Positions 954-52,467 of a stretch of 64,000 bases of DNA are shown here, in pieces. The stretch is from an uncultured Gammaproteobacteria bacterium (GTDB lineage: Bacteria > Patescibacteriota > Microgenomatia > UBA12405), in NCBI GenBank assembly GCA_964408995.1, contig CAYPBP010000002.1, positions 32,491 to 96,490 on the forward strand, in the 5' to 3' direction. Both the position numbers and the translations under genes were made by a program. How positions within the stretch are numbered: position 1 is the stretch's first letter; every line of letters begins with the position of its first letter. The notes beneath the pieces were generated by a model, which worked only from the letters and a program-made list of their open reading frames with translations, was not told the origin of the DNA and ran no database searches.

Positions 954-2672
954 TTATTTTAATTTGGAAATTAATTTATCAACAGAAACAATTTCACTTG
1001 CTTCTTCGTTTCTATTTTTGAACTCAATTCCACCATTTTCAAGACTTCTTTTACTGATAACTAGCCTAATTGGAACACCAATTAAATCAGCATCAGCAAA
1101 TTTAGCTCCGGCAGTAATTTCAGCTCGATCGTCAAACAAAACATCAATATTTTTATCTAATAAATCCTTATAAATTTTTTCAGCTTGATTTTTTATATCA
1201 TCTTCAAAAAGATCAAGGCCAATTAAATGAACTTGATATGGAGCAATAGATTTTGGCCAGATAATACCTTTGTCATCATGGTAAGTTTCAACAACAGTAG
1301 CCATGGCTCGACCAATACCAATCCCATAAGAACCCATATAGATTTTCTTTAAAGAACCATCTTTGTCGACGAAATTACCATCTAAAGGTTCACTGTAGGT
1401 GTAGCCAATATTGAAAATATTACCAAACTCTACGGCTTTTATAAATCTTAGTTTTGTATTGTTGCATTTTAAACAAATGTCACCATCTTTTGCTTCAGCA
1501 ATATCACCTTCAAAGTCTGGTTGATAATCACGATCAATATTTACATTTAATAAATCAATATTGAGTTTGTTTGATCCACCATAGGCGTTTTTAATTGTTC
1601 TTAAAGAATCATCAGCAACAATAATTAAATTTATTTTTGGTGCTAAATTATTTTTGATGCCAACTGGAGAAATAAAACCTGGAACAGAATGAATTAAAGT
1701 AATGATTTCTTCGTCAGTTGCATGACGTAATTCATTAGATTGAGTAATGTTTTTAAGCTTGGTTTCATTGACCATAAAATCACCACGAATAATAGCTAAA
1801 ATATAACGACCATTTTCATCAACATACATAACATCCTTAATTTGTTGCCAAAGTGGTTTATTATGAAAAGTAACACCATCTTCCATTGTTGTACCGCGAA
1901 CAGCAGCAATTTCTTGAAGCTCATTTTCAACATCATCTAAATTCATTTTTTCTTTAACAAACTGAGCAGTTTCAATATTGGCTGCATAACCACAAGTATC
2001 ACAAACAGCAATTGTGTCTTCGCCGACATCAGTTTCAACCATAAATTCATGAGAAACAGAACCGCCAATAGCACCATTATCAGATTCAACAACAACTACT
2101 TTTAAACCTAAATTTTTAGCAATTTCTTCGTAAGCTTGCCAATATTTTTGGTAAGTTATTTTTAGATCTTCTTCGTTTTCATGAAAAGAATAGGCGTCTT
2201 TCATAACAAATTCGCGAGTTCGTAAAAGTCCACCAGTTGGACGAGCTTCGTCTCGGAATTTTTGAGAAAATTGATAAATATTAATTGGTAAATCTTTATA
2301 GCTAGGAGCGAATTGATTAACTAAATCCATCATGACTACTTCAGCAGTGGCACCAAGAGTAAATTCGGCTTCATTTCGATCTTTTAAGCGCATCATTGAT
2401 GAACCAAATTTTTTATCACGATTAGCTTTTTGCCAAATATCAATTGGATGAAGAGTTGGAACAATTAATTCTTGAGCTCCAGTTTTTTCCACTTCTTTTC
2501 GAATTACATCTTCTATTTTTTTAGAAATTTTGTAACCTAGAGGTAAAAGTGAATATCGACCAGCAGCTAATTGACGAATAAATCCACCTTGAAGTAATAA
2601 TTTATGGCTAACAGCAGTGGCCTGACTAATAACAGTTTTGCTTGTTTTTCCAAATAGTTGTGAATATCGCAT
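954..2672 (-). CDS. proS: Prolyl-tRNA synthetase, bacterial type with editing domain
   Basis: 572 aa. Class II aaRS motifs, the ProRS-like N-terminus MRYSQLFGKTSKT...RQLAAGRYSLLPLG, an inserted editing domain, and a C-terminal anticodon-binding region. Confidence 0.9.
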   Translation of the reverse strand: MRYSQLFGKTSKTVISQATAVSHKLLLQGGFIRQLAAGRYSLLPLGYKISKKIEDVIRKEVEKTGAQELIVPTLHPIDIWQKANRDKKFGSSMMRLKDRNEAEFTLGATAEVVMMDLVNQFAPSYKDLPINIYQFSQKFRDEARPTGGLLRTREFVMKDAYSFHENEEDLKITYQKYWQAYEEIAKNLGLKVVVVESDNGAIGGSVSHEFMVETDVGEDTIAVCDTCGYAANIETAQFVKEKMNLDDVENELQEIAAVRGTTMEDGVTFHNKPLWQQIKDVMYVDENGRYILAIIRGDFMVNETKLKNITQSNELRHATDEEIITLIHSVPGFISPVGIKNNLAPKINLIIVADDSLRTIKNAYGGSNKLNIDLLNVNIDRDYQPDFEGDIAEAKDGDICLKCNNTKLRFIKAVEFGNIFNIGYTYSEPLDGNFVDKDGSLKKIYMGSYGIGIGRAMATVVETYHDDKGIIWPKSIAPYQVHLIGLDLFEDDIKNQAEKIYKDLLDKNIDVLFDDRAEITAGAKFADADLIGVPIRLVISKRSLENGGIEFKNRNEEASEIVSVDKLISKLK

Positions 2673-2731
2673 GACTTATTATAACTTATAGCTTCAAAAA
2701 AGATTATTTAAAATTTAGTATAATATAAGCT

Positions 2732-2929
2732 ATGGAAGAAAGACAATGTACACGTTGTCCAGTTGATAAAGATAAACTTTGTTTTAAAAAACAGATTGAA
2801 GCTATTGCTAGCGCTGACATACCCGCATCAGTTAAAAATGAAAACATTGGTTTGCTTCGAGAAATATATAGACCAACAAATTGTAGTCATATAAATCATA
2901 ACCCTCCTTTTGACAAAAAAGGATTGTAA
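2732..2929 (+). CDS. Hypothetical small Cys-containing protein (CxxC ... C ... C)
   Basis: 65-aa ORF that ends exactly where repeat copy A begins. TATAAT-like hexamer 9 nt upstream. No recognisable domain. Confidence 0.25.
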   Translation: MEERQCTRCPVDKDKLCFKKQIEAIASADIPASVKNENIGLLREIYRPTNCSHINHNPPFDKKGL

Positions 2930-3640
2930 TTTATACCTCAATTACCAACGGTAAAACCATTGGTTGGCGGCCAGTTTAAATTTTTGATATTGCAGATATG
3001 TAATAAAAATTGCAATAATAGTATGTGCTTTATATTCAAAACCCTAAAAATTTTGCAGATAAATTTAAAACAAAATCATCTAGATTGAATAACTGGGATT
3101 ATTCTAAGCCAGGTTTTTATTTCATTACGATAAAAACATTAAACGATAATAATTTTTTTGGAAAAATTATTAATGAAAAAATTGAATTATCGGCTATTGG
3201 TAAAATTGCCAATCAATATTTAATTGATATTTCTAAACATTTTTCAAATGTAATATTGGATGAATATACTATTATGCCAAATCATTTGCATATTCTATTC
3301 CTTGTAGAGACGCCAGATCTGGCGTCTCTACAAAATAATCAAAAAATCACGTTGCTAAATTATAGCCACAATAACCATCCAGATTTTTATAATCGATTGA
3401 ATCAAAAATCAAAACAATTAATTCCAAAAATTATTCAACAATATAAATCATCAGTAAAACGAATTTGTAATCAGAACAATTTATTTTTTGGTTGGCAAAA
3501 TCGTTACTATGATCAGATTATTAAATCTAAACTAGAATTAAATAATATACGTCAATATATTAAAAATAATCCTGTTAATTGGAAAAAATAATTTATACCT
3601 CAATTACCAACGGTAAAACCATTGGTTGACGGCCGGTTTT
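2928..3640 (+). mobile_element. IS200/IS605-like (RAYT-type) Y1-transposase element bracketed by a 50-bp direct duplication
   Basis: Direct repeats at 2928-2977 and 3590-3640 (taatttatacctcaattaccaacggtaaaaccattggttgRcggccRgttt, 2 mismatches). Each contains the imperfect palindrome ccaacggt/accattgg and flanks a HUH-Y transposase gene. Confidence 0.65.
3025..3591 (+). CDS. IS200-like / REP-associated tyrosine transposase (COG1943-type Y1 HUH transposase)
   Basis: GTG start. N-terminal W-x6-G-YF-T-T box (NNWDYSKPGFYFITIKT), HUH motif IMPNHLHILFLV, and C-terminal catalytic-Tyr box WQNRYYDQIIKSK...YIKNNPVNW matching the RAYT/TnpA_REP signature. Confidence 0.8.
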   Translation: MLYIQNPKNFADKFKTKSSRLNNWDYSKPGFYFITIKTLNDNNFFGKIINEKIELSAIGKIANQYLIDISKHFSNVILDEYTIMPNHLHILFLVETPDLASLQNNQKITLLNYSHNNHPDFYNRLNQKSKQLIPKIIQQYKSSVKRICNQNNLFFGWQNRYYDQIIKSKLELNNIRQYIKNNPVNWKK

Positions 3641-5347
3641 CTTGTAAATAATTTCTTCAAGATATCCTTGGACTTCTTCCCGAATAAATTCCATATTGGC
3701 TGGAGAACTAGTGGCTTGATTGAATTTATTAGTAATTTCTATTTTTAAAAAGTCCATGAGTTCGGCATTTTCTTTCATAAAGACAAAACCACGACTAAGA
3801 ATAACTGGAGGAGTTGATAATTGACCAGACTCTTTATCTAATAGTAGAACAACTGAAAACATGCCATCTTCGGCCAACAATTTACGATCCCTTAGGACAG
3901 TAGTGCCAACATCCCCGACCCCAAAACCATCAATTAAAACTTTGCGGATGGAAATATGATAATTAGTATCAACTGTACCATTGCTATTAAAAGTAGCTGT
4001 ACCATCATAGTCGGGTAAAATAACTTGGTCTTCATTGTAACCTAATTTTTTAGCCATCAATTGGTAAGATTTTAGATGACGATAATTACCACCAATTGGT
4101 AGTAAATATTTTGGTTTTAAAAGATTAATTAAAAGAGCGTGTTCTTTTTCAAAACCATGACCAGATACATGAAGTTCTAGTTTTTCTCCGTAGACAACAT
4201 CTGCTCCCAATTTTGAAAGAACATCAATCATATTATAGATATTTGAGGTTGTACCAGGAATATAATCTGGGGATGAAAAAATGACTTTGTCTCCAGATTT
4301 AACTTTGATCCTATGTTTACCCATAATCATCTTGCTAAGAGCTGAATCTGGTTGACCAGCGAAACCAGCAACTAAAAATAATAGTTTATTATCAGCAAAA
4401 TTTTTAATTCTTTCGACTGGGACAATATCAGTATCATTTAAGGTTACATAACCTAAGTCCTTGGCAATAGTTATGGCTCTATCAACCGAAAAACCAACGA
4501 TAACTATTTTTCGACCAACACTTTTACCGTATTCAATGGCTTGAGTCCAACGAACTATGTTACTAGAAATTGAAGTTACAAAAACTCGACTTTTGGCAGA
4601 AACTATTTCATTTTTAAAATTTTGAGCAATAGAACTTTCTGATGGTGACCAACCTTCATGATCAGAACCTAAGCTGTCGGACATTAAAGCAATGACTTTG
4701 CCGGTTTGACCAACCCGAGCAATGTGTGAATAATCAGCTCCTTTGCCATCTAGAGGGAAAAGATCGAATTTAAAATCGGAACCATGATAAAAAATTCCCA
4801 TCGGAGTAGTGATGGCAAAATGAAAAGTATCAGGAATAGAATGAGTAACTCGAATAGGGTCTATGTTGAAAACACCTTTATTTATAGATGGAGTTAATTC
4901 ATCATAGACTTGAAGATTAGCCCGAATTTGAACTTCACTAAGTCTGGCTTCAATAAAAGCAGCTGCTAATTTAGGAGCAAAAACTGGAATATTATTACCA
5001 ATAATAGGAAGAATAAAACGGACAGCACCAATATGGTCTTCGTGACCATGAGTGATAAAGATACCTAAGATTCTATCTTTTTTGTCTTGAAGATAATGAG
5101 TGTCAGGAATTTGAAGATCAACACCAAAGGCATCTTCTTCTGGAAAACCAACTCCACAATCGACAATAATAATTTGGCTTTTAGAAAGATCCCCACTGGG
5201 AATATATTCATAGACGAACATGTTTTGAGTAACATCCCCAAAGCCACCAAGGGAACTGATTCGGACTGAATCATTACCAGAGCGATATTCTCGAACTTGA
5301 TTTGGAGCATTAATAATATTTTTATTTGTATTTGTATTTTTAAACAT
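3593..5347 (-). CDS. rnj: Ribonuclease J (metallo-beta-lactamase / beta-CASP RNase)
   Basis: 584 aa. HGHEDHIGA zinc-binding motif and beta-CASP layout. The C-terminus ...PMVLPLVIEV is encoded by repeat copy B. Confidence 0.85.
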   Translation of the reverse strand: MFKNTNTNKNIINAPNQVREYRSGNDSVRISSLGGFGDVTQNMFVYEYIPSGDLSKSQIIIVDCGVGFPEEDAFGVDLQIPDTHYLQDKKDRILGIFITHGHEDHIGAVRFILPIIGNNIPVFAPKLAAAFIEARLSEVQIRANLQVYDELTPSINKGVFNIDPIRVTHSIPDTFHFAITTPMGIFYHGSDFKFDLFPLDGKGADYSHIARVGQTGKVIALMSDSLGSDHEGWSPSESSIAQNFKNEIVSAKSRVFVTSISSNIVRWTQAIEYGKSVGRKIVIVGFSVDRAITIAKDLGYVTLNDTDIVPVERIKNFADNKLLFLVAGFAGQPDSALSKMIMGKHRIKVKSGDKVIFSSPDYIPGTTSNIYNMIDVLSKLGADVVYGEKLELHVSGHGFEKEHALLINLLKPKYLLPIGGNYRHLKSYQLMAKKLGYNEDQVILPDYDGTATFNSNGTVDTNYHISIRKVLIDGFGVGDVGTTVLRDRKLLAEDGMFSVVLLLDKESGQLSTPPVILSRGFVFMKENAELMDFLKIEITNKFNQATSSPANMEFIREEVQGYLEEIIYKKTGRQPMVLPLVIEV

Positions 5348-6032: not shown

Positions 6033-6065
6033 GTATATACGCCCCGTACCACGGGGCGTATATAC
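6033..6065 (-). terminator. Intrinsic terminator downstream of the Lon-like gene (repeat family E)
   Basis: 13-bp stem tatatacgcccc(g) / (c)ggggcgtatata with loop taccac, followed on the minus strand by A/T-rich sequence. A near-identical stem recurs at 52424-52455. Confidence 0.6.
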
Positions 6066-52423: not shown

Positions 52424-52455
52424 TTTATTTAATTATATACGCCCCTCGGTGCGGG
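52424..52455 (-). terminator. Intrinsic terminator downstream of map (repeat family E, copy 2)
   Basis: tatatacgcccctcggtgcggggcgtatata, the same 12-bp stem as at 6033-6065. Confidence 0.6.
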
Positions 52456-52467
52456 GCGTATATATGT

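Follow-up and report, generated by a model that had tools for sequence, protein, structure and literature searches.

We analysed a 64,000-nt stretch of contig CAYPBP010000002.1 (the window, to which all coordinates refer; loci fetched for comparison carry L-numbers) and describe here a gene for a tyrosine transposase associated with repetitive extragenic palindromes (REPs), or RAYT, that lies between two direct copies of the 3' end of rnj. The duplicated sequence comes from the host and is a scar of the insertion; it does not belong to the recognition apparatus of the enzyme. The site begins with proS (954..2672, − strand), which encodes a prolyl-tRNA synthetase (ProRS) of 572 aa and, as the neighbour downstream of rnj, sets the syntenic site. 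It is followed by a small CxxC open reading frame (ORF) of 65 aa without family match (2732..2929, + strand), and by repeat copy A (2927..2977), an untranslated duplicate of the rnj 3' end. Next comes a 611-bp RAYT cassette, which consists of an AT-rich leader of 47 nt (2978..3024, + strand) and a Y1 HUH ORF of 188 aa with a GTG start (3025..3591, + strand). Repeat copy B (3589..3639), the authentic rnj 3' end, and the intact rnj gene for RNase J of 584 aa (3593..5347, − strand, Pfam RNase_J_C) complete the arrangement.

The repeat search returned the pair 2927-2977 and 3589-3639 as direct repeats of 51 nt, with 96% identity (49/51) and a spacing of 662. An earlier note on this DNA had recognized these flanking repeats and their two mismatches, but had made them 50 nt long with coordinates off by one. 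The 51-nt sequence occurs just twice in the 64 kb at up to three mismatches (0.00 expected by chance); the search for further copies, envisaged in that note as genome-wide, covered the 64-kb window and yielded none. Of the 51 nt of copy B, 44 are coding ((K)TGRQPMVLPLVIEV, 14 2/3 codons), three form the stop codon (3593-3595) and only 4 are flank, where the note had ten codons with about 20 nt of flank. Since the RNase_J_C domain aligns through the final rnj residue, copy B is the genuine end of the gene and rnj is intact. On the − strand, copy A reads TGRQPMVLPLVIEV followed by a stop, that is, the same 14 residues and stop, and it is not translatable within a larger ORF because an in-frame TAA lies ahead of it. 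The first three bases of the repeat (TAA) terminate the small ORF in copy A (2927-2929) and the RAYT ORF in copy B (3589-3591), so that the RAYT gene ends on a codon supplied by the repeat.

The same two-copy architecture is found in an independent Joint Genome Institute contig (L085), which shows that the arrangement is not an assembly artefact. No terminal inverted repeats were detected by the repeat search at the cassette ends, 2978 and 3588. A tblastn search of the window, which covered RAYT copies only, revealed no second one; the note's statement that the window contains no other transposase stands for RAYT copies, to which the search was confined. The terminator scan found none in or near the 51-nt repeat, and the promoter scan gave promoter-like matches no higher than background. 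The leader carries a conserved core, ATTGCAGATATGTAATAAAAATTGCAATAATAGTAT, that is kept in all rnj-site copies as well as in L088, and it may act as a promoter, one that went uncalled in the consensus scan.

Identity of the transposase gene

The ORF encodes a Y1 enzyme of the RAYT/IS200 type, as had been proposed from its letters. Its match to Pfam Y1_Tnp (PF01797) reaches 24.1 bits against a gathering cut-off of 23, a marginal pass in which no single stretch passes alone and the best covers residues 118-182. NCBIfam NF047646 (REP_Tyr_transpos) scores 43.3 bits (E = 3.2e-11), under its curated equivalog cut-off of 80, and the RAYT is related to this equivalog family and not a member of it. Additionally, a family profile of 27 homologues matches the structure of Escherichia coli TnpA-REP (4ER8_A, E = 3.3e-5) in the Y-motif region only. 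Across the 27 aligned homologues, H87 and H89 of the HUH motif (MPNHLH) and Y178 of YIKNNP are invariant, and W157 is invariant or nearly so. These residues lie on the + strand at 3283-3291 (H87-L88-H89), 3493-3498 (W157-Q158) and 3556-3573 (YIKNNP with the catalytic-type Y178); both boxes that had been predicted, HUH and putative catalytic Tyr, are borne out by this conservation.

TnpA-REP subclass 2.4 (Quentin et al. 2018, PMC6006769), which is equivalent to RAYT Group 4 (Bertels et al. 2017, PMC5581495), is characterized by the signature NH[IFV]H, WQ and YIxNNP (PMC6006769, Table 1). All three elements are present in the RAYT ORF, as NHLH with Leu at the hydrophobic position, WQ and YIKNNP. 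Judged by its motifs, length, taxonomic spread and the REP inside the ORF, the gene is assigned to TnpA-REP/RAYT subclass 2.4. Its C-terminus is about 8 aa shorter than that of family members at other sites. Close homologues belong to Candidatus Shapirobacteria by their attached names, which place the window in a lineage of this group as well, and distant ones include, among the matches listed, Cyanobacteria, Bacteroidota and Chloroflexota. A scan of a genome collection with the family alignment likewise gave, among the matches listed, distant members from other phyla at 30-43% identity. Among the orthologues at the rnj site, dN/dS of tnp ranges from 0.14 to 0.49, and the RAYT is therefore a maintained gene under purifying selection.

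The cognate REP and the hairpin at the rnj end

A perfect 16+16 palindrome (TTGTAGAGACGCCAGA/TCTGGCGTCTCTACAA; 3302..3333) is located within the RAYT ORF directly after the HUH strand, where it codes for VETPDLASLQ. It has the form of a double-foot REP, with arms GTAGAGACGCC..GGCGTCTCTAC, GTAG on the 5' side and CTAC on the 3' side, and as single-stranded DNA it folds with a minimum free energy of −15.7 kcal/mol (z −9.7). We surveyed 105 family loci from many phyla for such elements, and a perfect palindrome lies 3-30 codons past the HUH motif in 56 of them. Different RAYT genes translate one and the same palindromic DNA in different frames, so that its conservation lies at the nucleotide level. 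About 25 of the 105 loci have flanking repeats, mostly palindromes, and the 14 printed examples are GTAG-type hairpins; where distant members such as L073 possess flanking REPs, these are identical to the intragenic palindrome. REPs of the family are GTAG-footed and GC-rich, with stems of 10-28 bp. Together, the sequence comparisons identify the GTAG...CTAC double-foot palindrome inside the ORF as the predicted cognate REP of the enzyme. Since an in-ORF double-foot palindrome has already been described for subclass 2.4 (PMC6006769), we make no claim of novelty for it and dropped that candidate.

A different hairpin had been singled out before. Each copy of the 51-nt repeat contains a 19-nt imperfect palindrome, CCAACGGTAAAACCATTGG, which would serve as a REP-like recognition sequence, the two copies being the flanking REPs of the gene. 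RAYT genes are typically flanked by REPs, as the family loci with flanking repeats illustrate, and the palindrome is indeed present in both copies; it proved weak, however. On the + strand, its two versions fold as single-stranded DNA with −4.7 and −5.5 kcal/mol (z −0.3 and −0.6), much like shuffled sequences, and on the − strand the value is −7.5 kcal/mol (z −2.05). The rnj-end hairpin has no GTAG foot, whereas the family REP is GTAG-footed and is present inside the RAYT ORF. It is dictated by the codons of the conserved peptide QPMVLPLV and occurs equally in transposase-free relatives, while in the 64 kb it is confined to the two repeat copies. Moreover, these copies are direct repeats over 51 nt of coding sequence and not of a hairpin unit, and copy A is gone in most lineages. 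Folding statistics and conservation lead us to reject the rnj-end hairpin as the RAYT recognition site, and a REP/RAYT arrangement is an extremely improbable explanation of the two copies. Outside the RAYT ORF, no GTAG hairpin was found in 2600-3900, and the 64-kb window contains no second GAGACG..CGTCTC hairpin.

Several related hairpins were observed besides. Two intergenic hairpins of the form GTATATACGCCCC..GGGGCGTATATAC, at 6033-6065 and 52434-52464, are the only copies in 64 kb; their stem, (G)TATATACGCCCC...GGGGCGTATATA(C), is like the GTAGAGACGCC stem of the RAYT with two G-to-T changes. They may represent a small REP-like family or a common type of terminator. In L085, an intergenic REP, TATAGAGACGCCCC..GGGGCGTCTCTATA (TATAGAGACGCCCCGATGGGGCGTCTCTATA), is found at 84-113 between the proS promoter region and the small ORF, in a stretch of about 70 nt for which the window has nothing at the corresponding position; this points to REP activity in the L085 lineage. 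In longer homologues (P0002, P0005, P0007, P0010, P0020, P0022 and P0033), the in-ORF REP is duplicated in direct orientation, and the two copies bracket an in-frame insert of about 35-50 codons that is Asn-rich and AT-rich. L004 likewise has in-ORF REP copies at 4282-4308 and 4393-4419, separated by an insert of 84 nt. Here, too, direct repeats enclose an insert, but within the RAYT gene.

Occupied and empty rnj sites in relatives

Close RAYT homologues occupy exactly this rnj site in six other lineages. All rnj-site copies have the identical junction on the rnj side, and all their RAYTs share the shortened C-terminus NW[KQ]x with a stop codon taken from host sequence; this common truncated end with its host-supplied stop indicates a single origin of the junction. 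The lineages differ in copy A, which matches copy B at 49/51 positions in the window and at about 47/50 in L085, and is degenerate in L087 (peptide ISRQSAVLLLVIEV), reduced to 23 nt in L004, absent in L001-3 and L086, and absent in L118, where the CxxC ORF is kept. Copy A is dispensable: of the seven lineages with the gene, five show this copy in degenerate or truncated form or lack it altogether.

This pattern bears on the idea that copy A persists because it serves a function itself, either as the 3' untranslated region or 3'-end signal of the small ORF or as an antisense partner of the rnj mRNA 3' end, with its co-variation with copy B reflecting selection. The ancestral transcript of the small ORF must run into the rnj end, a context that copy A preserves, and the A/B differences in the window and L085, five altogether, are all synonymous in the rnj frame. 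However, L118 retains the CxxC ORF without copy A, and no terminator is predicted. Polarization against outgroups assigns at least one of the two differences in the window (a CGT codon) to copy B, whose coding role makes synonymy expected in any case, the others being not polarizable, and five sites are too few for a test. We therefore regard such a function as very improbable.

Comparison with element-free loci revealed what the site looked like before. In L106 and L109-L111, rnj is followed by 34-35 nt and then by the next gene, with no duplication; the cassette is absent from L106 although its rnj has 94% amino-acid identity to that of the window. In L107 and L108, rnj and a CxxC ORF converge with adjacent or overlapping stops, and neither a transposase nor a duplication is present. 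The small ORF of the window resembles, by eye and unscored, these ORFs that abut the rnj stop, and it therefore shows where the original target junction lay: the boundary between copy A and the small ORF corresponds to the ancestral boundary between rnj and that ORF, as seen in the empty sites. Because these sites carry no duplication, the 611 bp are the insert and the 51 nt are duplicated target. The unusual insertion or recombination event that the earlier note had offered as its second option is thus substantiated by empty sites in close relatives, and the element-free rnj loci (L106-L111), which that note had named as the comparison to make, all lack the duplication. Presence and absence are interleaved on the rnj tree; for example, L004 (present) and L108 (absent) have 96% amino-acid identity.

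Elsewhere in Shapirobacteria, RAYTs are found in an operon-like cluster with MgsA/RarA, between MscL and QueA (MscL - RAYT - QueA), or next to TsaD (TsaD - RAYT). These have full-length C-termini and the 3' end of the neighbour is not duplicated, so the duplication is particular to the rnj-site subclade and is not a habit of the family. BLAST of upstream against downstream flanks across the fetched family loci showed a neighbour-end duplication evident only at the rnj site (window, L085 and the L004 remnant). The remaining loci with matches have mostly REP-type palindromes, the longer direct matches in L011, L040, L055, L097 and L100 being ones not compared to neighbouring genes.

The MgsA/RarA cluster is the commonest RAYT context found in Shapirobacteria-like contigs. 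In L112-L114 and L121-L122, it is organized as MgsA/RarA - RAYT - dCMP deaminase - MGMT-like / GIY-YIG / DNA alkylation repair genes, tightly packed and co-directional, with several genes abutting or overlapping their neighbours by a few bases. The position of the RAYT within what appears to be a DNA-repair operon hints at a host function. In L113/L114, a 10-nt direct repeat, TGAAAGAGAA, surrounds the RAYT (3485-3494 and 4070-4079), one copy just before its start and the other just after its stop (E = 0.15, not significant).

Two further observations concern the rnj end. Three independent contigs with the cassette, L001, L002 and L003, each end 120-210 nt into rnj, which may reflect strain heterogeneity or an assembly break at the junction. 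In L106 (3076-3112), the last ~30 nt of rnj, ending ...IET and the stop, are nearer to the repeat copies of L085 than to those of the window; recombination may be concentrated at the rnj 3' end, or L106 may have lost a cassette that it once carried.

Origin of the duplication

We consider it probable that the locus goes back to one ancestral insertion of a truncated RAYT with its leader, in an event of the illegitimate or repair type that doubled 51 bp of the target, followed by decay and gene conversion. In the ancestral order, rnj and the small ORF would have been convergent, with proS beyond them in the direction of rnj. The 611-bp cassette, made up of the 47-nt leader and the C-terminally truncated RAYT, would have been inserted antisense, 47 nt upstream of the rnj stop, and 51 bp of target, which begin at the small-ORF stop codon and take in the final 14 2/3 rnj codons, would have been duplicated. 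As the outcome, rnj, the small ORF and the RAYT would each end on intact sequence. The insertion would have occurred once only, by illegitimate or repair-type recombination and not by canonical Y1 'peel and paste' transposition; a one-off event is indicated because the breakpoint lies inside an ORF, terminal structure is missing and no other insertion sites were found. Subsequently, the scar would have decayed or been deleted in most lineages, gene conversion between the direct repeats would have kept A and B alike in the window and L085 lineages, and recombination between the repeats could have produced precise deletions that left sites like those of L107 and L108. The cassette would also have passed between Shapirobacteria lineages by recombination, and its lower divergence would be explained in this way.

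This lower divergence is among several observations that weigh against a single insertion followed by simple descent. Firstly, the same lineage-specific substitutions are found in copy A and in copy B: the two copies of the window end ...ATT GAG GTA TAA ATTA, while both L085 copies read ...CTA CCA.TA GT. ATC GAG ACA TAA, and across the two genomes 8-11 of the 51 positions differ. Paralogues are nearer to each other than orthologues, which means either that they evolved in concert by gene conversion or that each lineage acquired its duplication independently, and a single old duplication needs added gene conversion to explain the shared variants. Secondly, the cassette has about half the synonymous divergence of the adjacent rnj at matched site classes: at four-fold sites, tnp shows 0.12-0.31 against 0.18-0.58 for rnj and is lower in 13 of 15 pairs, and at other synonymous sites it is lower in all 15, the class-matched tests giving p values from 0.003 to 1 individually on pairs that are not independent. 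The Nei-Gojobori values also lie well under those of proS and the Lon-like gene; specifically, dS between the window and L004 is 0.37±0.07 for tnp, 0.96±0.09 for rnj, 0.89 for the Lon-like gene and 1.05 for proS, at a similar GC content at third codon positions (16-21%) in all four. Thirdly, identity between the window and L085 is 90-98% over the cassette and 80-85% in rnj, and it steps from 96-98% to 80-85% exactly at the tnp/rnj junction. Such a step fits a cassette younger than its flanks and is not predicted by simple vertical inheritance; on the left flank, the small ORF is barely alignable between the two. Finally, the spacer between copy A and the leader core varies among lineages, from roughly 5 to 26 nt, and to our knowledge 51 bp far exceeds the target duplications of transposons; the mechanism given above is a proposal. 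Within the otherwise similar cassette, a segment just upstream of the HUH motif (3218-3307) has 75-80% identity to L085 (ANQYLIDISKHFSNVILDEYTIMPNHLH vs ANQYSIDLPKHFSDIFLDVFVVMPNHMH); this dip is due either to mosaic recombination or to rapid change in a segment that may recognize DNA.

These same observations can be read as the trace of an active, site-specific mobile unit that reinserts in the last 47 nt of rnj in each lineage, every insertion generating a 51-bp staggered-cut duplication of the host's own sequence and every excision restoring an empty site. Such a unit would give a single account of repeats that are host-specific in both copies in two diverged lineages, of an A-B divergence (2/51 and ~3/50) far under that of the hosts (rnj dS ~1), of a cassette with about half the synonymous divergence of its flanks and a sharp identity step at the junction, and of the patchy presence among close relatives (96% amino-acid identity for L004/L108, 94% for window/L106), with L107 and L108 resembling clean empty or excised sites. 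We nevertheless consider it unlikely. It needs a target-duplicating mechanism, and none is known for Y1 HUH enzymes; the cassette ends have no terminal inverted repeats, subterminal hairpins or GTAG REP; and the right end falls within a truncated ORF that borrows the host stop, like a one-off breakpoint. In addition, a second insertion site was not found, copy A decays or goes while the gene stays, as for a fixed resident, and the cassette and rnj trees are broadly congruent, with two clades each. The divergence contrast itself is just about two-fold at matched sites, with individual tests that are marginal.

Alternatively, a 662-bp circle composed of the cassette and one rnj end as attP could have entered the rnj 3' end by a Campbell-type homologous or site-specific crossover, leaving attL and attR as direct repeats and rebuilding rnj. 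Such integration is classically recognized by direct repeats that restore a housekeeping gene's 3' end, the repeat unit with its insert is compact (662 bp), and Y1 enzymes are known to form single-stranded circles (IS608, ISDra2; PMC6006769). In that case, however, one copy, or the cassette-proximal halves of both, should be element-like and as similar across genomes as tnp, whereas the variable 29 nt are host-like in every cross-genome comparison (~8-11/51 differences) and the adjoining 3' half of tnp differs by only 2-4%. The 662-bp unit encodes the RAYT alone and no integrase, and several lineages hold the cassette without a second copy. As neither repeat copy is element-like, a Campbell-type or att model without added gene conversion is rejected, and integration of this type as a whole is quite improbable.

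We return to a single ancestral insertion by illegitimate or repair-type recombination, for which gene conversion and cassette exchange are the likeliest causes of the A/B likeness and the low cassette divergence. RAYTs are the textbook example of transposase domestication, in which the gene of the enzyme itself has ceased to move. The rnj locus offers a clean, datable case of a RAYT gene reaching a new chromosomal site in a bacterium of the candidate phyla radiation (CPR), with a scar far longer than any classical target duplication and with empty sites kept in close relatives. If the history combines one illegitimate event with gene conversion, the locus is a well-documented case of short direct repeats that evolve in concert and then decay. 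Should the insertion be recurrent and site-specific, RAYT genes or the host machinery would be able to relocate without harming an essential gene, by an unrecognised route; a mobile cassette would represent a previously undescribed integration mode for a Y1 HUH gene, with precise excision possible. On balance, the insertion scar is real but mostly ordinary, and the gene belongs to a known RAYT subclass.

Neighbouring genes

The gene that follows rnj varies among close relatives. It encodes a 566-572-aa ProRS, for which an editing domain is on record in L107, a 412-415-aa ProRS without such a domain, or, in L106, an ORF that starts MSKKFVKTKSEDLSEWYNDLVLKSE... and is by its appearance a putative archaeal-type ProRS. 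All of these ProRS-variant genes (L001-L004, L106-L109 and the window) lie behind a conserved promoter-like sequence, AGCTATAA(G)TTATAATAAGTCATG.

Comparison with known systems

DDE transposons have terminal inverted repeats and make short target duplications of 2-14 bp. The cassette, unlike these, has no terminal inverted repeats at 2978/3588 and is associated with a duplication of 51 bp. Integrative elements that duplicate their att sites are similar in having an insert between direct repeats, of which the downstream one makes an essential gene whole again; they differ from the present case, where there is no integrase, the unit is 662 bp and both repeat copies are host-like. Elements of the IS200/IS605 family have distinct subterminal left and right hairpins, insert 3' of a tetra- or pentanucleotide without target duplication and are multicopy. 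The cassette shares with IS608 and ISDra2 the Y1 HUH/Tyr catalytic core and the form of a small single-ORF unit, but its sole flanking hairpin is weak and host-derived, its duplication is 51 bp long and it is present as a single copy in the window. By these comparisons, the cassette qualifies neither as an IS200/IS605 insertion sequence nor as an integrase-type island or DDE transposon.

REPtrons and TIRtrons (Di Nocera et al. 2013, PMC3733652) are closer, as they combine a RAYT-type gene with GTAG palindromes and tolerate in-frame intragenic REPs; their flanks are GTAG REPs or long terminal inverted repeats, in contrast to the direct duplication of coding sequence at rnj. The closest relatives are the RAYTs of subclass 2.4. 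In these, flanking REPs or REP doublets forming hairpins (REPINs) take the place of the direct 51-bp duplication of a host gene end seen here, and the truncated C-terminus, the host-supplied stop codon and the CPR host likewise set the present gene apart. The likeness extends to the NHLH/WQ/YIKNNP motifs, the size of about 190 aa, the in-ORF double-foot REP, a single copy in the available sequence, purifying selection and a scattered taxonomic distribution, and the gene should accordingly be annotated as TnpA-REP/RAYT (subclass 2.4) and not as an IS200 insertion sequence.

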